A stretch of 64,000 nt of DNA, taken from assembly GCA_965209035.1 (NCBI GenBank), contig OZ242372.1, forward strand, positions 128,001 through 192,000. The letters are read 5' to 3'. Positions within the stretch are counted from its first letter, which is position 1. Each line of letters starts with the position of its first letter. Positions 11,210-34,721 of the stretch are shown in pieces. The position numbers and the translations under genes are program-made. The notes under the pieces are model-generated. The model was not told the origin of the DNA. It was given only the letters and a program-made list of their open reading frames with translations, and made no database searches. This DNA comes from Gammaproteobacteria bacterium. Lineage in GTDB: Bacteria; Pseudomonadota; Gammaproteobacteria; CBDBNL01; JAAOII01.

Positions 11210-11399
11210 TTATAAGAACTTTATTCTATCCCTTTGCAAAATTGTATGATCCCACCCAGTTCCGGACTTTTGTTGTTTTTGCAAGAACCGGATTGGGCCG
11301 GATTGGGATAGTTGTTTGAGAGCATAATGAGGACGTTCGCGATGATACCAAGCCAACCATTCGATGAGTTTGGCGTTGTGTCAATGCCGACGTGCAAAT
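11210..11399. repeat. Left copy of the 190-bp direct repeat flanking the IS1634-family element
   Basis: Matches 13386-13575 (ttataagaac…cgtgcaaat). Confidence 0.95.
11243..11399 (-). pseudogene. IS481-family right-end remnant, internally deleted (duplicated at 13419-13584)
   Basis: TGTATGATCCCACCC… matches the reverse complement of about 14820-14947, then joins a patch matching about 14494-14522. Confidence 0.85.
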
Positions 11400-13385
11400 C
11401 TTGACTTCGGAAAGAAATTATTATATTTTTAAAAAACCTTGTATTTTCAAGGTTTTTTTAGGATCTTTAATAGTGTATAATTAAAAGCATAATATGTATA
11501 TTCGCGAATTCACTCGAAAAAACGGGCAGGTTCTGTCCGTGGTTTTTTCTTTTTATCGGTCCAAGCACAAGCAGCCGAACAATATGACTCTGTATACCAG
11601 CCAACCGGTGGAAGCCGACAGTGCGGAATATGCGGTGGTGCGGGCCGAGATGGAGCAACGCTGCCGCCGCTTGGAGAAGGAATTAAGACAAAGCACCTCA
11701 CTGAATGCGTTTTTAACAAAACATCAAAAGGTGGTGGGCTGTGGTCGTGGCCATGCTATCCGGCGCAACGACCGGGTGGATGACGATGGACCGGGGGCAC
11801 TTTCGGCCTTAAGAACTTTAGGTGCGCGCAGTTACGGTCTGCCCTATGTCATGGAGAAATTATTTGCGTCCATGGGCTTGGATACGTTGGTGGCACCGCG
11901 GCGCCAACGGCTGAATGCCTGTTTGCGGGTGCTCAGTTGGGGGCGGCTGACGGCCGAGCGGATTAGTAAACGGCAATTGTCGCAGCTGTTGGAAGAAGAA
12001 TATGGGATCCACTGGTCTGAGGACAGCATGTACAAAGCGATGGATCATTTGGATGATGCCGAGATTGAGCGCATTCAGATGCGGGTGGCACGTTCCAATT
12101 TGGCATTACTTAACCAAAAGACGGTGCAGCTGTTGCTGTATGACACGACGACCTTTTATTTTGAATCGGTGCAGGCGGATGACTTCCGCTGCAGAGGTTG
12201 GTCCAAAGACGGCAAAGCCCATCGGACGCAGGTGGTCTTTGGGATGTGGATGACGCCTTGTGGCTTGCCGTTGGGCTACAAACTATTTACCGGTAAGACC
12301 GCGGATGTGTCGACCTTGTTGCCGGCTTTGGACGAGATGCAGCGGCGGCTGGGGGCCCAAAAGACGGTGGTGATTGCTGACAACGGCCTCCTCAGTGAAG
12401 ACAACTTGGCGGCGATTACGGCGGCCGGGCATGCGTTTGTCATGGCCTGTTCGCCACGCAAGTTACCCAAAGAGATCCGCACGGCGGTCTACAACTATGA
12501 TTTTGAAGGCGGGGCCCGCATCTTTGAGATCGGCTTGCTACCACCCGCGCGCACCCAACTTGCCGACAACGACCGCCCTCTGGTGGCACGCAATTATTAT
12601 GCCAACTTCTCCTCCAAGCGCGCCCGCCGCGATCTCCATCAGCTGCATCTGGCCTTGAAGCGGGCCAAAAACAGTACCGGCCGCAACCACCAAGCTCTGC
12701 GGGGGATTGCCTGTCCCGATATCCGTAAGTTCTTATCCAACAACGGCATCACCACACTGAACCCCACAGCCATCAACCGGGCGATGCAAGAAATCGGTCT
12801 CTATGGCGTGCAGGCCTCGCCCAATATTGACTACCAAACCGCCTACACTTACTACAAACAACTGTATGCCATTGAACACGGCTTCCGGGATCTTAAAAGT
12901 GATCTGCAAATCCGCCCGACCTTCCATTGGAAACCCGAGCGCATCCGCGCCCATTTCGCCCTCTGCTATCTGGCGTTTGCCGCCATCCGCCGCTTGCGGT
13001 ATGTCCTCCGCCAACAAAAGCCCGCACCCACCACCGTGTGGACCACCGAAATGCTGCCGTTCACCGATCTAGATGCCCGACCGCAGCCGCCGCAAAAAAA
13101 CAAGACCGAGGAAATCGTCACCACCAAGAAGATCCTCAAAGAACTGCGCAACTTCAAAGCAACTATCCAACGCAATCCCGTTGGCAACTATTACAGCAGC
13201 CCACACCAACTCACCCCGGGACAGCAACGCATTTTACAAGCCGTTCAACTAAAACCCAAACAACCTGCTCTGTTGGATCACAAACACTAAGCGCAAGAAG
13301 CAAAGTCGCAAGGGCTCATAGTGTATAAAAACGGCCCGCAAACCCTTATAAAAACAGGGTTTTTTAAGAAGTTTCCGAAGTCAAG
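11400..13385 (+). mobile_element. IS1634-family insertion sequence (1986 bp)
   Basis: Terminal inverted repeats CTTGACTTCGGAAA (11400) and TTTCCGAAGTCAAG (ends 13385); flanked by 190-bp direct repeats. Confidence 0.9.
11494..13290 (+). CDS. IS1634-family DDE transposase
   Basis: YDTTTFYFE, GWSKDGK, VIADNG, IEHGFRDLKSDLQIRPTFHW…IRAHFALCYLA. Confidence 0.92.
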   Translation: MYIREFTRKNGQVLSVVFSFYRSKHKQPNNMTLYTSQPVEADSAEYAVVRAEMEQRCRRLEKELRQSTSLNAFLTKHQKVVGCGRGHAIRRNDRVDDDGPGALSALRTLGARSYGLPYVMEKLFASMGLDTLVAPRRQRLNACLRVLSWGRLTAERISKRQLSQLLEEEYGIHWSEDSMYKAMDHLDDAEIERIQMRVARSNLALLNQKTVQLLLYDTTTFYFESVQADDFRCRGWSKDGKAHRTQVVFGMWMTPCGLPLGYKLFTGKTADVSTLLPALDEMQRRLGAQKTVVIADNGLLSEDNLAAITAAGHAFVMACSPRKLPKEIRTAVYNYDFEGGARIFEIGLLPPARTQLADNDRPLVARNYYANFSSKRARRDLHQLHLALKRAKNSTGRNHQALRGIACPDIRKFLSNNGITTLNPTAINRAMQEIGLYGVQASPNIDYQTAYTYYKQLYAIEHGFRDLKSDLQIRPTFHWKPERIRAHFALCYLAFAAIRRLRYVLRQQKPAPTTVWTTEMLPFTDLDARPQPPQKNKTEEIVTTKKILKELRNFKATIQRNPVGNYYSSPHQLTPGQQRILQAVQLKPKQPALLDHKH

Positions 13386-13575
13386 TTATAAGAACTTTAT
13401 TCTATCCCTTTGCAAAATTGTATGATCCCACCCAGTTCCGGACTTTTGTTGTTTTTGCAAGAACCGGATTGGGCCGGATTGGGATAGTTGTTTGAGAGCA
13501 TAATGAGGACGTTCGCGATGATACCAAGCCAACCATTCGATGAGTTTGGCGTTGTGTCAATGCCGACGTGCAAAT
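13386..13575. repeat. Right copy of the 190-bp direct repeat
   Basis: Matches 11210-11399. Confidence 0.95.
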
Positions 13576-13643: not shown

Positions 13644-14947
13644 TGCATGATCTCATAAAGGTTCTGGACTCTGAGTTTGGTATTGTGCGTCCTCAGATCA
13701 AGCAGCCGGATGTTCTGTCGGACGGGTCGAAAATAGATCCGGCAACGGGTCTCCGGTATGTGGAGCTAGATGAATGAAACGGGCAAGAAAGATGGATAGC
13801 TGTTTTGCTCTCACCGCCGCAGACAGCGGAGGCTTGTTGTTGATAAAACTGTCTAGGTGTATCCGCTGGCAAGACGGTACGGTGTGCGAGAGCGGCTGCA
13901 CCGCGGAGGTGATTTGAAATGAGAGGAACACGTTTACACTACATTGGTTATCGCGTGCGCGGTTTCAATAAAATGGTGGTTTTAGCAAACAAATATTCAA
14001 ACATGTCTAAAACCACCAAAATCAAACTGGACACCTTAGCGTTCGCGCGCAAACATGGTGTCGCGGCCGCGTTGGATCATGCCAGGATCAGTCGTGCTAC
14101 ATTCTACGAGTGGCAGCGGCGTTTCCGTGAAGGCGGGGTCGATGAACTGGCGAACAACTATGGGTATCAGCCCAAGCGGTCCAACACCTGGCCACCGGCA
14201 CTGATTACCAAGATCCGATCTTGGCGACAAGAGCGTCCGAACATCGGTGCCGGTAAACTGGTCTGCTTGTTACCCGAATGGTGTCAGCAGCGCGGGCTGC
14301 CGCTGCCCAGCCAATCAACGCTCTCTCGCATCATTGCCGATGACCCGGATAAGATGCGGTGCAAACCATCGCGGTCCGTGCCGAAACGCCTGCGGCAAGG
14401 TGCTCCGCGCGAGCGCAAGGACATCCGCTTTGTTGCGGGCCGGAGAGGTGAATGTGTTGCCTTTGATACGCTCGTCCGCATCGTCGATGGCCGGCGCTTT
14501 TATTGGCATGTCGGCATTGATCTATTTTCCCGCTTCTCACTGGTCAGTGTCGACACCTCGGCTGCTTCGGCCAGTTCCGCCCAGCTCTTTACCGCCATGC
14601 AAAACATACTCGGCACTCGGATCGAAAAAGTCCTCACCGATAATGGCAGTGAGTTCGCCAAAGACTTTCACCGGGTCGTGACCGCAAACGGCAGCACCCA
14701 CTGGTATACCTATCCAAGGAAACCGCAAATGAATGCACACTGCGAACGGTTTAATCGCACTCTCTGGGAAGAGTTCGGTTGTCATATGCGGCATCTCTTG
14801 GTTAAGGATATGCCAGCATTCAACGCCAAACTCATCGAGTGGTTGGCTTGGTATAATCTGGAACGTCCCCATTATGCTCTCAAACAACTCTCGCCAATCC
14901 AGTTTTTGCAAAAACAAAAAAAGTCCAGAAATGGGTGGGATCATACA
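13644..14947 (+). mobile_element. IS481-family insertion sequence (~1304 bp)
   Basis: IRL TGCATGATCTCATAAAGGTTCTGGAC; IRR (reverse complement) TGTATGATCCCACCCATTTCTGGAC; ATGAT duplicated on both flanks. Confidence 0.85.
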
Positions 14948-14983
14948 ATGATTAACAAAAGATTCTCAATTCCCGTAAGATAG
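13919..14983 (+). CDS. IS481-family transposase (HTH + rve integrase core)
   Basis: ISRATFYEW HTH; AFDT…IDLFSR…LTDNGSEF…PQMNAHCERFNRTL…YNLERPH. Confidence 0.9.
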   Translation: MRGTRLHYIGYRVRGFNKMVVLANKYSNMSKTTKIKLDTLAFARKHGVAAALDHARISRATFYEWQRRFREGGVDELANNYGYQPKRSNTWPPALITKIRSWRQERPNIGAGKLVCLLPEWCQQRGLPLPSQSTLSRIIADDPDKMRCKPSRSVPKRLRQGAPRERKDIRFVAGRRGECVAFDTLVRIVDGRRFYWHVGIDLFSRFSLVSVDTSAASASSAQLFTAMQNILGTRIEKVLTDNGSEFAKDFHRVVTANGSTHWYTYPRKPQMNAHCERFNRTLWEEFGCHMRHLLVKDMPAFNAKLIEWLAWYNLERPHYALKQLSPIQFLQKQKKSRNGWDHTMINKRFSIPVR

Positions 14984-29340: not shown

Positions 29341-29715
29341 TCACACCCCCTGCCCGGCACATTTGCGAAAAAAGCATGTCGGTCTGCCGGTATGGCAAGC
29401 ACCGCTTCCCCGCTGCTCCACCGACAACAACAAGGCATCGCCGTCGCAGTCCAGCCGCAATTCGCACAGTCTTTGAACAGCACCCGATGTCTCGCCCTTA
29501 TACCAAAGAGTGCGGCGCGAACGCGACCAAAAAACCGTCCGCCTCTCTTCCAAACTTTTTTCAAGAGAATTGCGATTCATCCAGGCAAGCATCAGAACCC
29601 GTTGTGTTTTATGGCACTGAACAATTGCCGGCACCAAACCCGCCGAGTCCCACACAACAGCATCAAGGAATTTTGTTTGAGACAAAGTCTCCGTTTCTTC
29701 ATTACGATTTTCCAT
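29341..29715 (-). CDS. hisI: Phosphoribosyl-AMP cyclohydrolase
   Basis: [29 protein letters not shown]. Confidence 0.96.
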
Positions 29716-29914
29716 TTCAAAGTTATTATACAGTTTTTTTGCGGTTGCATAATCTCATTGTATGGTCCCACCCATTTCCAGACTTTTGTTGTTTTTGCAA
29801 AAATTGGATCGGCGAGAGTTGTTTGAGAGCATAATAGAGGCGTTCGCGATGATACCAAGCCAACCACTCGATGAGTTTGGCGAAGACCGCTCAATGAGTC
29901 TAGCCCCTTAATTG

Positions 29915-30718
29915 TTACTTACGTTTGGGTTTGGGTTCGTATTTGTCTATATCATTAATATCCCAATGATTCTCCTTGAAAAACTGATTACGCAGATACA
30001 GACCGGCCAACAGATGCACCGACTGCACAGTGCCCACCGCTTTGATTATTCCCTTCGTCTCTTCGGTTGCCGATATATTCCTTTCAACAAAAGCGTAGAT
30101 CACTTCCGCAACTTGATAAAGATCGCCTTGCTCTTCTTGTTCCGAGTTAAGTTTTTTTAGATCCTTATTCCATTCTTCCCGATGCTCGTCCACATATTCC
30201 ATCAGCCCGCTACTTTCCAGTATCGCTTCACCGATGTCGGTCATATTGAGAGGAGATGCTTTTTGAGAATATAAAGCGCGTTCTTCTTCAACCGAATCTC
30301 TCTTTGCCATGTTTCCCAAAACAGTAAGAATTTTTACGGTATCACGATGCATATCTTCTCTTAACTCTCTTTTATCTTCTCTTAACTCTCTTTTAACTTC
30401 TTTTATTTCTGTTTTAACTTCCTTTATTTCTGTTTTGACTTCTTTGATTTCTGTTTGGACTTCTTGTTGACTCACTTCCAACCGCTTGATACCCTTATAT
30501 ATTGAAATGAACGCATATTCGCCAATGAAACCAATCACAAGTGATAACAAAAATATCAAAAGTATCACAAACCAATTGTTTGCCGAAACTTGCCCGTATG
30601 TAATCGCCGTGTCGTAAACAGTCATCGTGGATAAAACGGAAAATACAATAAGCCCCAAGGCCGCCGTGAATTTCGCACGACCGCTTAATTTAAGATCTGT
30701 GCGTTTATTCATCGGCAA
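29915..30718 (-). CDS. 2-TM + heptad-repeat coiled-coil protein, IRR-proximal copy (267 aa)
   Basis: Two TM helices, EIKEVKT heptads, conserved C-domain SPLNMTDIG…; GAGGAG RBS before ATG30712. Confidence 0.85.
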   Translation of the reverse strand: MPMNKRTDLKLSGRAKFTAALGLIVFSVLSTMTVYDTAITYGQVSANNWFVILLIFLLSLVIGFIGEYAFISIYKGIKRLEVSQQEVQTEIKEVKTEIKEVKTEIKEVKRELREDKRELREDMHRDTVKILTVLGNMAKRDSVEEERALYSQKASPLNMTDIGEAILESSGLMEYVDEHREEWNKDLKKLNSEQEEQGDLYQVAEVIYAFVERNISATEETKGIIKAVGTVQSVHLLAGLYLRNQFFKENHWDINDIDKYEPKPKRK

Positions 30719-30910
30719 TCACTCCTCCTCAAATTCATAAAATAGTGTCCTCTATCCTCCCGCATTTGTTATGATGTTCCCCTTTTTAATGAACTGCCTT
30801 GCCATAACAATATTTACCGCAAAATCTTTTAGAAATTTTATCATTATATAATTCCAAACTCAGCGTCCGGAACCTTTCTGAGATTATGCATCTTATTTTC
30901 TTTTCTTTCT

Positions 30911-31765
30911 TTAATGTTGATTGCGTTTGGATTTGCGTTCAGGTTTGGGTTCGTATTTGTCTATATCATTAATATCCCAATGATTCTCCTTGAAAAACTG
31001 ATTACGCAGGTACAGACCGGCCAACAGATGCACCGACGGCACAGTGCCCACCGCTTTGATTATTCCCTTCGTCTCTTCGGTTGCCGATATATTCCTTTCA
31101 ACAAAAGCGTAGATCACTTCCGCAACTTGATAAAGATCGCCTTGCTCTTCTTGTTCCGGGTTGAGTTTTTTTAGATCCTTATTCCATTCTTCCCGATGCT
31201 CGTCCACATATTCCATCAGCCCGCTACTTTCCAGTATCGCTTCACCGATGTCGGTCATATTGAGAGGAGATGCTTTTTGAGAATATAAAGCGCGTTCTTC
31301 TTCAACCGAATCTCTCTTTGCCATGTTTCCCAAAACAGTAAGAATTTTTACGGTATCACGATGCATATCTTCTCTTAAATCTGTTTTAACTTCTTTTATC
31401 TCCCCTCTTAACTCTGTTTTAACTTCTTTTATTTCTGTTCTAACTTGTTTCATTTCTGTTTGGACTTCTTTTATTTTTGTTTGGACTTCTTTTATTTCTG
31501 CTTGGACTTCTTGTTGGCTCACTTCCAACCGCTTGATACCCTTATATATTGAAATGAACGCATATTCGCCAATTAAACCAATCACAAGTGATAACAAAAA
31601 TATCAAAAGTATCACAAACCAATTGTTTGCCGAAACTTGCCCGTATGTAATCGCCGTGTCGTAAACAGTCATCGTGGATAAAACGGAAAATACAATAAGC
31701 CCCAAGGCCGCCGTGAATTTCGCACGACCGCTTAATTTGAGATCTGTGCGTTTATTCATCGGCAA
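30911..31765 (-). CDS. 2-TM + heptad-repeat coiled-coil protein (284 aa)
   Basis: Near-identical paralog with its own IRL, TATCAT -10-like box and RBS. Confidence 0.85.
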   Translation of the reverse strand: MPMNKRTDLKLSGRAKFTAALGLIVFSVLSTMTVYDTAITYGQVSANNWFVILLIFLLSLVIGLIGEYAFISIYKGIKRLEVSQQEVQAEIKEVQTKIKEVQTEMKQVRTEIKEVKTELRGEIKEVKTDLREDMHRDTVKILTVLGNMAKRDSVEEERALYSQKASPLNMTDIGEAILESSGLMEYVDEHREEWNKDLKKLNPEQEEQGDLYQVAEVIYAFVERNISATEETKGIIKAVGTVPSVHLLAGLYLRNQFFKENHWDINDIDKYEPKPERKSKRNQH

Positions 31766-31958
31766 TCACTCCTCCTCAAATTCATAAAATAGTGTCCTCT
31801 ATCCTCCCGCATTTGTTATGATGTTCCCCTTTTTAATAAACTGCCTTGCCATAACAATATTTGACCACAAAATCTTTTAGAAATTTTATCATTATATCAT
31901 TCCAAACTCAGCGTCCGGAACCTTTCTGAGATTATGCATCTTATTTTCTTTTCTTTCT

Positions 31959-32834
31959 TTAATGTTGATTGCGTTTGGATTTGCGTTCAGGTTTGGGTTC
32001 GTATTTGTCTATATCATTAATATCCCAATGATTCTCCTTGAAAAACTGATTACGCAGGTACAGACCGGCCAACAGATGCACCGACTGCACAGTGCCCACC
32101 GCTTTGATTATTTTCTGCGTCTCTTCGGTTGCCGATATATTCTTTTCAACAAAAGCGTAGATCGCTTCCGCTATTTGATAAAGATCGCCTTGCTCTTCTT
32201 GTTCCGGGTTGAGTTTGCTTAGTTCCCTATTCCATTCTTCCCGATGTTCGTCCACATATTCCATCAGCCCGCTACTTTCCAGTATCGCTTCACCGATGTC
32301 GGTCATATTGAGAGGAGATGCTTTTTGAGAATATAAAGCGCGTTCTTCTTCAACCGAATCTCTCTTTGCCATGTTTCCCAAAACAGTAAGAATTTTTACG
32401 GTATCACGATGCATATCTTCTCTTAAATCTGTTTTAACTTCTTTTATCTCCCCTCTTAACTCTGTTTTAACTTCTTTTATTTCTGTTCTAACTTCTTTTA
32501 TTTCTGTTCTAACTTGTTTCATTTCTGTTTGGACTTCTTTTATTTTTGTTTGGACTTCTTTGATTTCTGTTTGGACTTCTTGTTGGCTCACTTCCAACCG
32601 CTTGATACCCTTATATATTGAAATGAACGCATATTCGCCAATGAAACCAATCACAAGTGATAACAAAAATATCAAAAGTATCACAAACCAATTGTTTGCC
32701 GAAACTTGCCCGTATGTAATCGCCGTGTCGTAAACAGTCATCGTGGATAAAACGGAAAATACAATAAGTCCCAAGGCCGCCGTGAATTTTGCACGACCGC
32801 TTAATTTGAGATCTGTGCGTTTATTCATCGGCAA
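31959..32834 (-). CDS. 2-TM + heptad-repeat coiled-coil protein (291 aa)
   Basis: Near-identical paralog, one heptad longer than the 284-aa copy. Confidence 0.85.
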   Translation of the reverse strand: MPMNKRTDLKLSGRAKFTAALGLIVFSVLSTMTVYDTAITYGQVSANNWFVILLIFLLSLVIGFIGEYAFISIYKGIKRLEVSQQEVQTEIKEVQTKIKEVQTEMKQVRTEIKEVRTEIKEVKTELRGEIKEVKTDLREDMHRDTVKILTVLGNMAKRDSVEEERALYSQKASPLNMTDIGEAILESSGLMEYVDEHREEWNRELSKLNPEQEEQGDLYQIAEAIYAFVEKNISATEETQKIIKAVGTVQSVHLLAGLYLRNQFFKENHWDINDIDKYEPKPERKSKRNQH

Positions 32835-33026
32835 TCACTCCTCCTCAAATTCATAAAATAGTGTCCTCTATCCTCCCGCATTTGTTATGATGTTCCCCTT
32901 TTTAATAAACTGCATTGCCATAACAATATTTACCGCAAAATCTTTTAGAAATTTTATCATTATATAATTCCAAACTCAGCGTCCGGAACCTTTCTGAGAT
33001 TATGCATCTTATTTTCTTTTCTTTCT

Positions 33027-33923
33027 TTAATGTTGATTGCGTTTGGATTTGCGTTCAGGTTTGGGTTCGTATTTGTCTATATCATTAATATCCCAATGAT
33101 TCTCCTTGAAAAACTGATTACGCAGGTACAGACCGGCCAACAGATGCACCGACTGCACAGTGCCCACCGCTTTGATTATTCCCTTCGTCTCTTCGGTTGC
33201 CGATATATTCCTTTCAACAAAAGCGTAGATCACTTCCGCAACTTGATAAAGATCGCCTTGCTCTTCTTGTTCCGAGTTAAGTTTTTTTAGATCCTTATTC
33301 CATTCTTCCCGATGCTCGTCCACATATTCCATCAGCCCGCTACTTTCCAGTATCGCTTCACCGATGTCGGTCATGTTGAGAGGAGATGCTTTTTGAGAAT
33401 ATAAAGCGCGTTCTTCTTCAACCGAATCTCTCTTTGCCATGTTTCCCAAAACAGTAAGAATTTTTACGGTATCACGATGCATATCTTCTCTTAAATCTGT
33501 TTTAACTTCTTTTATCTCCCCTCTTAACTCTGTTTTAACTTCTTTTATTTCTGTTCTAACTTCTTTTATTTCTGTTCTAACTTGTTTCATTTCTGTTTGG
33601 ACTTCTTTTATTTTTGTTTGGACTTCTTTGATTTCTGTTTGGACTTCTTTGATTTCTGTTTGGACTTCTTGTTGGCTCACTTCCAACCGCTTGATACCCT
33701 TATATATTGAAATGAACGCATATTCGCCAATGAAACCAATCACAAGTGATAACAAAAATATCAAAAGTATCACAAACCAATTGTTTGCCGAAACTTGCCC
33801 GTATGTAATCGCCGTGTCGTAAACAGTCATCGTGGATAAAACGGAAAATACAATAAGTCCCAAGGCCGCCGTGAATTTTGCACGACCGCTTAATTTGAGA
33901 TCTGTGCGTTTATTCATCGGCAA
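33027..33923 (-). CDS. 2-TM + heptad-repeat coiled-coil protein (298 aa)
   Basis: Near-identical paralog, two heptads longer than the 284-aa copy. Confidence 0.85.
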   Translation of the reverse strand: MPMNKRTDLKLSGRAKFTAALGLIVFSVLSTMTVYDTAITYGQVSANNWFVILLIFLLSLVIGFIGEYAFISIYKGIKRLEVSQQEVQTEIKEVQTEIKEVQTKIKEVQTEMKQVRTEIKEVRTEIKEVKTELRGEIKEVKTDLREDMHRDTVKILTVLGNMAKRDSVEEERALYSQKASPLNMTDIGEAILESSGLMEYVDEHREEWNKDLKKLNSEQEEQGDLYQVAEVIYAFVERNISATEETKGIIKAVGTVQSVHLLAGLYLRNQFFKENHWDINDIDKYEPKPERKSKRNQH

Positions 33924-34120
33924 TCACTCCTTCTCAAATTAATGTTTCTCTTTTTAATAAACTGCATTGCCATAATGATATCTTACCACAAAATCTTTTA
34001 GAAATTTTATCATTATATAATTTCAAACTCAGCGTCCGGAACCTTTCTGAGATCATGCACATCATGTATCGTCTCGCCCGGTTTTGGACTGTTGTATGTG
34101 TTCTTTCCGTCAATGATCCG

Positions 34121-34166
34121 GTCGCACATGGTCGCACATGGCCGCACATGGCCGCACATGGCCGCC
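34121..34166. repeat. 10-bp tandem repeat g(t/c)cgcacatg x4.5
   Basis: Seen directly, upstream of rpmB. Confidence 0.9.
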
Positions 34167-34382
34167 GTGCGTAACCCGGTCGTTTGCGATTAACACGGAT
34201 GAGCCGGCTGCCGCGTCTGCGATGGGGATCTTGAAGTCGGACGGATATTTCGGTTTTAGAAAAATTGGAAAAAAACAGCGGATAATGACATCAAAGCGGT
34301 CCCCGTTGCCTAAAATAAATGCAAATATGATTAATTTTTATTCGCACAACACTCAATTCAAAATTTAATTCAAACAAACGAT

Positions 34383-34721
34383 ATGACCAGAAGATGTGAA
34401 GTCACCGGTATGTTGCCTATGGCGGGGAACAATGTGTCTCATGCCAACAACAAGACCAAGCGGCGTTTCTTGCCTAACCTGCACAAACGCAGATTTTGGC
34501 ACCCGGGACGCAATCAATTTATACGCTTACGGGTTTCCGCGCGGGGTATCCGCATGATCGACAAGTATGGCTTGGAGGAAGTATTATCCGCGCTTGAGTC
34601 CGGCCGCAAGTTCAAGAAACCGAAAAACCCGGTGCCCGAAACGGGCGCAAACCAGGCGTCCGAATCCGGCACAAACCCGCCGACAGCCGAATCCTCATCG
34701 GAGGAATCAGTAAAAGAATAA
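34383..34721 (+). CDS. rpmB: 50S ribosomal protein L28 with a C-terminal extension
   Basis: [20 protein letters not shown]…[13 protein letters not shown]. Confidence 0.96.

Follow-up and report, generated by a model that had tools for sequence, protein, structure and literature searches.

How did four near-identical genes, each standing behind its own copy of the left end of one insertion sequence (IS), come to lie between hisI and rpmB in an uncultured gammaproteobacterium? The question is raised by positions 29759-34059, minus strand, of a 64,000-nt stretch (hereafter the window) of contig OZ242372.1, positions 128,001 to 192,000, from assembly GCA_965209035.1. The answer that we favor, and consider probable, is that the locus is a non-autonomous mobile insertion cassette (MIC) derived from the dominant IS481-like IS of this genome, in which the transposase gene was replaced by a gene for a lineage-specific membrane protein and which became a tandem array through recombination. 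An earlier reading of the letters (the sequence-only reading) had already proposed an IS-derived cargo element without transposase, and this part is borne out by the alignment of both ends with those of the IS and by a transposase of which only a remnant is left. Its bolder proposal, that nested left ends set the number of cassettes, fared less well, as detailed below.

The block contains four paralogous open reading frames (ORFs), whose products are 97-99% identical over aligned positions and differ mainly in the number of 21-nt (seven-residue) repeats (Table 1). The repeat unit of the array is 1,048-1,068 bp, and units are further distinguished by private substitutions and by a 36-nt leader deletion in the outer unit. 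As had been noticed at first sight, each gene follows its own left inverted repeat (IRL). This 36-nt sequence matches four times in the window against 0.00 expected (100 shuffles), with no mismatch in the three inner units and one in the outer unit, the tip of which, TGCATG, is the same as in the autonomous IS. For ~38-41 nt, and no farther, all four IRLs are alignable to that of the full IS at 13644. A single right inverted repeat (IRR) closes the array, and the transposase tail of ~120 bp previously reported there is real: the 124 nt adjoining the IRR tip correspond to IS positions 1181-1304 with 90.6% identity (BLASTN), and 35 of 41 translated residues are identical to the transposase C terminus. 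Beyond this 41-codon remnant, the ORF list of the window has no transposase-like ORF in the array, and Pfam and NCBIfam scans of the cargo protein revealed no transposase domain. The element is a block bounded by one functional-looking IRL and one IRR, inside the short divergent hisI-rpmB control region. The idea that every cassette has its own promoter stands in part. There is a TATAAT directly after each IRL, and a GGAGG upstream of an ATG located 6 nt inside the listed TTG start. However, a consensus scan for sigma-70-type sites after the array IRLs found none, and promoter-like sites in the array region are not in excess (12 observed versus 11.1 ± 3.1 expected). Because no -35 reached 4/6, this "promoter" is a sequence motif only.

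The presumed source of transposase is abundant. In the 2.24-Mb genome, assembled in two contigs, BLAST returned 148 hits to the IS, including 20 full-length copies (1299-1304 bp, 93.6-100% identity); 58 hits have the left tip and 85 the right tip. Perfect 5-bp target duplications of varied sequence flank 14 of the 20 full copies, five have none, and one was unscored, which agrees with the earlier statement that an intact cognate IS is available. The single transposase ORF encodes 354 residues, with Pfam rve_3/rve and HTH_32 domains above cut-offs. Its best NCBIfam match is NF033577 transpos_IS481 (E 1.8e-51, 175.3 bits, under the curated cut-off of 224), the second being IS3 (98 bits), and the best plasmid tblastn matches are 34-36% identical, one of these features being annotated "IS481 family transposase." Elements of the IS481 family are ~1-1.3 kb long and display a single transposase ORF without frameshift, TG...CA termini, and short direct target repeats. 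The parent element fits these features by its length, single ORF, termini (TGCAT...ATACA), and 5-bp duplications, and we call it IS481-like on this sequence evidence. The stop codon of the transposase ORF in the window (13919-14983) lies 36 nt outside the IS; because the ORF runs through the IRR into the flank, the last 12 residues depend on the insertion site. Since relatives of the same family have only distant or broken transposase homologs (37-47% identity), expansion of this IS is specific to this lineage.

Cargo genes occur at several other loci of the genome, all given here on contig C1. The one-cassette version that had been anticipated exists: copy A1 (G000:C1:1605474-1606671) consists of IRL, leader, gene, and IRR remnant, and is flanked on both sides by ATCAT, a perfect 5-bp duplication. 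A1 is inserted at positions 4-8 of the end tip of a second family of IS or MITEs (miniature inverted-repeat transposable elements), and shares with unit 4 of the window both the 32-nt joint between cargo and IRR and the 12-nt deletion at the gene 3' end, which in unit 4 leaves a shortened C terminus (...KPKRK). Copy A2 (C1:457412-460750) has two cassettes, 82-93% identical to the window copies and each with an IRL; a full IS, itself flanked by the duplication ATGAT, interrupts the first leader, its inner junction (...AAGAGCGCGCGA/TGCAT) is homologous to that in the window (...AATAAGA/TGCAT), and there is no IRR at the end of the array. BLAST found no IRL...IRR element with two or three cassettes elsewhere in the genome. 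A second subfamily, B, with 37-38% protein identity, is represented by three genes in an array at C1:2066379-2069496, two in another at C1:259155-261204, one gene with a 65-nt IRR piece after it at C1:123868-124770, and, at C1:192892-193506, a fragment preceded by IS positions 1-207. Where subfamily B forms arrays, the first gene has a native promoter region, and in later genes IS positions 2-132 are joined in frame to the coding sequence via the ATG of a short IS upstream ORF. Every intact member found (seven of subfamily A and six of subfamily B) and one fragment adjoin ends of this one IS, in blocks of one, two, three, or four genes. Outside this genome the family is rare. A collection of 5.8 billion proteins yielded 12 members. 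Six belong to this genome, and the rest come in pairs from three further contigs of 69,955 nt (P0004 and P0005), 25,114 nt (P0007 and P0011), and 28,522 nt (P0009 and P0012); the first of these contigs, from a related strain, appears to encode one inner-type and one terminal-type protein. A search of a genome-contig collection returned only two Bacteriovorax coiled-coil matches, and metagenome contigs searched by cargo protein and IRL pattern returned nothing.

The insertion site tells a similar story. In the window, hisI and rpmB are 4,667 nt apart, 4,301 nt of which are the element. An empty site is found in two of the three sister-genus genomes (G002 and G003), where the two genes are divergent neighbors with ~62 nt between the matched parts; in the third (G004), they are separated by 740 nt that include a fragment of another gene family. 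In two further genomes (G001 and G005), hisI and rpmB are not adjacent but far apart. Forty other genomes, drawn from the family, order, and class, contain no true homolog of the cargo gene, the matches being restricted to the coiled coil (best E 2.3e-6, residues 79-160), and no homolog lacking IS ends was found at the same locus in these relatives. Since hisI-rpmB is uninterrupted in the sister genus and the cargo is absent from relatives, the block would be an acquisition at this site.

We favor the following mechanism. A transposase from one of the 20 full IS copies would have moved an IRL...IRR unit in trans, and tandem amplification of a ~1.05-kb unit would have generated the four copies. 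Since this unit spans the IRL tip to the 3' untranslated region (UTR) of the gene, each copy carries an IRL and a leader. Cassette number would then change through RecA-type unequal crossing-over or collapse between repeats, not through the inner IRLs. The junctions suggest that 1) an (IRL-leader-gene-UTR) array came first, 2) its last gene was fused to an IRR-bearing transposase remnant, which would have made the block transposable, and 3) the one-cassette copy was a later recombinational collapse. Indeed, A1 has no UTR, so an element like it could not have given rise to the inner UTR/IRL junction, and since the same junction is common to the diverged A2, the array form should be older than the IRR fusion. 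A1 itself is a mosaic. It carries the private sites of the outer unit (alignment columns 6, 78, 83, and 84) and its extra 21-nt repeat (columns 477-497), lacks the private changes of unit 4 (columns 101, 215, and 437) and its 63-nt repeat deletion, and from column 548 to the end matches all unit-4-specific sites except column 1217 (a private base in the IRR tail). This composition, outer unit at the 5' side and last unit at the 3' side, reads as the signature of a crossover between the first and last repeats. In addition, unit 2 has a C-terminal patch typical of the A2 lineage, which points to gene conversion among copies. The array repeats are 93-96% identical in pairwise comparisons, and ~1-kb repeats of such identity recombine readily without transposase. 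Judging from these sequences, homologous recombination is favored as the process that changes dosage.

Several observations weigh against this reading. First, as had been pointed out before, the four-cassette element has no clean 5-bp duplication: its minus-strand flanks are TGATG and ATGAG, which agree at 4/5 positions only after a 1-nt shift. IS-end scraps are present on both sides, namely a 12-nt inverted IRL tip and a second-family end. For both reasons, we infer rather than observe its arrival by transposition. Second, apart from position 6 (A for G), the inner IRLs are essentially the same as the outer one, and they retain every position common to the IRL and IRR of the IS itself. Since four full IS copies with duplications also carry A at position 6, the inner ends look as competent as the outer one, and the notion that they are dead variants is ruled out by its presence in these transposed copies. 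Third, both gene subfamilies have their repeat junction precisely at IS position 1-2, although they retain different lengths of IS (41 versus 132 nt), and the two subfamily A lineages have the IRL joined to UTR positions 8 nt apart. Because random tandem duplication rarely breaks exactly at an IS tip, transposase action probably helped to make the junctions. They probably stem from an insertion-type event, in which an IS or IRL-bearing unit landed behind a gene of the family and after which internal deletion and unequal crossing-over took place. Fourth, four of the eight sequencing runs listed contain part of the stretch (X1, X2, X4, and X5), as short-read contigs and one low-depth raw-read run from a different strain, and no read or contig in these short or shallow data crosses the array.

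Could the block never have moved at all? A resident tandem gene family might have been hit repeatedly by the active IS, its scars being spread by concerted evolution. Such a scenario, which we regard as unlikely, would account for the missing duplication at the four-cassette element, for the two-cassette A2 array without IRR, and for subfamily B, where first copies keep their native promoter and IS positions 1-132 or 1-207 are fused at different points. The genome also holds 58 left-end and 85 right-end fragments, with solo IRLs upstream of unrelated genes. The scenario is at odds, however, with the identical cargo/IRR joint at two loci, one of which has a perfect 5-bp duplication (chance ~1 in 1024 in a fixed register), and with the empty hisI-rpmB spacer of ~60 bp in the sister genus. 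Furthermore, since none of the 40 relatives searched has the family, long residence at the hisI-rpmB site is ruled out.

The sequence-only reading had proposed that the four IRLs are alternative functional left ends, any of which the transposase could pair with the single IRR to move one to four cassettes, and hence that the array is mobile with adjustable dosage. The condition of the inner IRLs described above speaks for it. So does the fact that any block transposed out of an array whose spacers each hold an IRL has to start with one, as is true of the four- and the one-cassette elements, and P0004 and P0005 on the contig of the related strain suggest a two-cassette form. Nevertheless, use of the innermost IRL with the IRR would have made A1 unit-4-like throughout, and the sole smaller version found is instead a mosaic of outer and last units; a nested-end origin is therefore not supported. 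A2 displays the same junction without an IRR, the first copies of subfamily B have a native promoter, no two- or three-cassette IRL...IRR element was found in this genome, and recombination between the ~1-kb repeats needs no transposase. Nor did the circle-junction reads that this model evokes turn up: among the four runs, whose contigs drop rare forms, there is no IRR-to-IRL joint and no circle or alternative-joint read. Apart from a difference in repeat number, the only joint seen is in X4, where a cyclic contig of 1,067 nt contains the UTR/IRL junction without flanks at depth 3 and is too thin to interpret. We consider this model improbable.

Equally improbable in our view is that the transposase itself made the junctions between 3'UTR and IRL position 1, by copying out an IRL-gene-UTR unit with a non-canonical right boundary that re-entered a resident family gene through homologous recombination or end-targeted insertion. 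The hints are the tip-exact junctions in two subfamilies, the UTR joins 8 nt apart, insertion of the IS into or beside ends of its own kind, and two head-to-tail pairs of full IS copies (C1:679332-681936 and C1:1176729-1179331, with spacers of 5 and 0 nt). In one pair the 5-nt spacer is the duplication of the second copy; in the other the copies abut, the last base of the first being missing. The sequences abutting the inner IRLs (...AATAAGA, ...GCGCGCGA, and ...TATAAGGG) have no terminal CA and no likeness to the IRR, with which they cannot be aligned, and a surrogate right end at these junctions was discarded on these grounds. If transposase did make the junctions, head-to-tail multimers would form, any IRL together with an acquired IRR would be movable, and mobile arrays of adjustable dosage would have a new, IS481-type way to arise.

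Finally, that a single cassette was expanded or mis-joined during assembly is scarcely credible: while no listed read or contig spans the array and contigs of short reads end within it, private substitutions, a 36-nt leader deletion, and repeat numbers set the units apart, unit-specific stretches are matched by contigs from X1 and X2 with 0 other letters, cassette contigs have two to five times the word depth of the flanks (a rough measure), and the genome is assembled in only two contigs. Taken on their own, the run data neither confirm nor collapse the array.

Table 1. Coordinates of the cargo array, its flanking genes and scars, and the autonomous IS in the window
Feature	Coordinates	Strand	Details and basis
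Full-length autonomous IS481-like element	13644..14947	+	1304 bp; 5-bp duplication ATGAT; transposase ORF 13919..14983
hisI, left flank	29341..29715	-	43 nt downstream of IRR tip; orthologs located in relatives
12-nt inverted copy of inner-type IRL tip (TGCATAATCTCA), unexplained scar	29746..29757	+	1 nt from IRR tip; direct reading
IRR tip (29759) and 124-nt transposase 3' remnant	29759..29882	-	BLASTN, translation, alignment with IS IRR
32-nt joint, last cargo gene to transposase remnant	29883..29914	-	Identical in one-cassette copy; unit alignment
Unit 4 (last)	29915..30890	-	IRL 30855-30890; leader 30719-30854; gene 30718..29915 (267 aa)
Unit 3	30891..31938	-	IRL 31903-31938; leader; gene 31765..30911 (284 aa); 20-nt 3'UTR 30891-30910 abutting next IRL
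Unit 2	31939..33006	-	IRL 32971-33006; leader; gene 32834..31959 (291 aa); 3'UTR
Unit 1 (outer)	33007..34059	-	IRL 34024-34059; leader with 36-nt deletion; gene 33923..33027 (298 aa); 3'UTR
Solo end of second related IS/MITE family (TGTATCGTCTCGCCCGGTTTTGGACT)	34065..34090	+	5 nt outside outer IRL
rpmB, right flank	34383..34721	+	323 nt from outer IRL; orthologs located in relatives

How does this locus compare with known systems? Transposase-less cargo elements are already known, MIC231 of Bacillus cereus reportedly being one; a left-end repeat before each gene copy is unusual. As defined in passages of two sources, a MIC carries passenger genes between IS-related inverted repeats, has no transposase, and is activated by the cognate one (PMC3129680, PMC4337579). 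The array resembles MICs so described in that its passengers lie between IS-type inverted repeats without a transposase of their own, in a genome with an intact cognate IS, and a short target duplication is present at A1; by its sequence, this one-cassette copy qualifies as a MIC. It differs in its IS481-like parent, in the four-fold amplification of the passenger with the left end repeated in each unit, and in the lack of a clean duplication at the large copy. That the layout has no described precedent needs qualification: in the parts of PMC4337579 that concern Xanthomonas oryzae, tandemly repeated MIC units with transcription activator-like effector (TALE) genes are flanked by inverted repeats of TnXax1 (Tn3 family). 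Like our locus, these are chromosomal clusters of tandem, inverted repeat-bounded units whose passenger genes hold variable tandem repeats, with slippage or unequal crossing-over thought to alter both copy and repeat number (PMC4337579). In contrast, the Xanthomonas units described are apparently complete MICs, of Tn3 type and with TALE cargo, whereas here the parent is IS481-like, the cargo is an orphan, and the inner junctions join 3'UTR to IRL with no IRR sequence, one right end being held in common.

Other systems share parts of this architecture. Translocatable units of the IS26/IS6 family form (IS sequence-cargo)n arrays that change copy number and raise gene dosage; the array has the same form, but only 36-41 nt of one end are repeated instead of a complete transposase-encoding IS. 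ISEcp1-type elements perform one-ended mobilization, and IS30, IS21, and IS911 produce head-to-tail (IS)2 dimers. Direct joining of a left end to DNA other than the canonical right end, and the head-to-tail IS pairs in the genome, recall these, although the sequences abutting the inner IRLs here have no final CA and are unlike the IRR. In the portion of text available on copy-out-paste-in circles with abutted ends, IS481 is absent from the families with known circles (bioRxiv 10.1101/2023.06.07.543989). Tn3-derived inverted-repeat miniature elements (TIMEs), which build mosaic non-autonomous transposons (PMC4133298), are similar, as far as passages of that source describe them, in that non-autonomous ends mobilize intervening DNA with transposase in trans; they belong to another transposon family, and those passages describe no tandem cargo array. 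Unlike in an integron cassette array, the intergenic repeat is an IS end and not an imperfect palindrome, and no attC-like inverted repeat is among the window repeats listed. In the literature searched, neither an IS481-type MIC nor an (IRL-gene)n-IRR layout was found described, which is no proof of absence. The locus differs from the known systems in its parent family, its orphan cargo, and inner units that have only a left end, with one common right end. On the favored reading, the locus shows a very active IS, in a small IS-ridden genome, capturing, spreading, and amplifying a lineage-specific membrane-protein family. It offers a natural case for the role of MICs in gene-family expansion and dosage variation outside antibiotic resistance, and for asking whether a transposase can use a repeated transposon end inside an array.

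The cargo protein has two N-terminal transmembrane helices, a long coiled-coil helix with a variable number of repeats (seven-residue in subfamily A and 11-residue in subfamily B), and a conserved C-terminal domain of ~140 residues with the invariant motifs SPL..(M)T..G...LE.SG...YVD and LY.RN.FF.E..W.I..IDKY.P. Because basic residues precede the first and follow the second transmembrane helix, an N-in/C-in topology is predicted, so that the protein would be anchored in the inner membrane and extend a variable-length coiled-coil stalk toward a cytoplasmic helical domain. All seven A-type ORFs are intact, and the ratio of nonsynonymous to synonymous substitution rates (dN/dS) is 0.22-0.37 in 10 comparisons of window and A1 copies with A2 copies, which argues that the cargo is under purifying selection. 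The AlphaFold mean predicted local distance difference test (pLDDT) score is 61.1 for the full-length protein and 70.7 for the C-terminal part, within which the domain is modeled as a helical bundle (pLDDT 85-93 over model residues 41-140). Against Pfam, PHROGs, PADLOC, and NCBIfam the cargo gave only coiled-coil noise below cut-offs, tblastn against a phage collection gave no match, Foldseek of the C-terminal domain against the Protein Data Bank (PDB) gave no match at E ≤ 0.001, and the best ESM Atlas score (0.75) serves as a lead only. The spidroin C-terminal domain (best VIA-align Z 6.5, 85 residues, root-mean-square deviation 3.7) was rejected since such a Z is common for helical models. 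A profile search of 1.84 billion representatives produced 1,263 matches at E ≤ 0.001, mostly to the coiled coil; among the 150 matches listed, seven cover the C-terminal domain (P0089, P0116, P0123, P0133, P0136, P0147, and P0151; 145-221 residues), and these seven have no assignment in Pfam, NCBIfam, or PADLOC and no informative one in PHROGs. The conserved domain is also present in ~200-residue membrane proteins elsewhere and, with no family or fold match, is an uncharacterized domain. Very tentatively, the cargo might be a membrane-tethered cytoplasmic scaffold or sensor, the stalk of which varies in length by repeat slippage.

The arrival of the element may also have affected its neighbor. 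hisI retains a TATAAT 9 nt upstream of its ATG, with the -35 position inside the IS-derived 12-mer, and the consensus scan detected in the transposase remnant a promoter-like site facing hisI (TTGGTA-16-TATTAT, 29858->29831, minus strand). Outward transcription from IS481 into adjoining genes is reported for Bordetella pertussis (PMC6161684, PMC3053399). Since the element displaced the hisI promoter region, expression of the histidine operon may now depend on read-out from the element. Elsewhere in the genome, the inner-type tip variant seen in the 12-mer is confined to cassette IRLs. On the other side, the second related IS/MITE family has 45 ends in the genome (≤4 mismatches), for example at window positions 34065-34090, 42448, and 53140, with the consensus tip TGTATCATCCC(A/G)(C/T)CCGGTTTTGGACTC; no longer repeat was found around 34065-34090 in the right flank of the array. 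Farther out, the spacer that separates rpmB from the outer IRL has four to five tandem copies of a 10-nt unit (GGTCGCACAT / GGCCGCACAT; window 34120-34169).

A set of lipoprotein-like genes (553-865 residues), with the common C terminus ...VWDLGT..YPALNCLPGGLSAQ.R, appears from sequence to be a second gene family with an IS end in its repeat unit. These genes form tandem arrays at C1:1198561-1208492 and C1:718346-723259. In the former (1198561-1207154), each of four full-length genes is preceded by a ~65-85-nt IS right-end piece (~positions 1223/1240-1306), and in the latter such a piece precedes the first gene only. Solo IRLs stand before members at C1:578907 and C1:2139591. The fragment in the 740-nt hisI-rpmB spacer of the sister-genus genome (G004:C111:6100-7700) encodes the ...VWDLGG..YPALTCLP motif of this family, which suggests that the same intergenic site was hit independently.

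Other traces of IS activity were recorded. The full copies at C1:1178027 and C1:1182575 have the common flank AAGTG, which suggests an inversion between them. MITE-like derivatives with internal deletions, retaining left and right ends (96-355 bp), are found at C1:320324-320419, 320895-320990, 1349664-1349764, and 425555-425909, among others, two of them being only 571 nt apart. In the window, an IS4/IS1634-like transposase gene (11494..13290, DDE_Tnp_1) within 11210-13575 lies between perfect 190-nt direct repeats (11210-11399 and 13386-13575), each of which holds a 138-nt IRR remnant of the IS481-like element. Elements of the IS1634 type make very long target duplications, and the 190-nt repeats look like one of these, arising from insertion into an older IS remnant.

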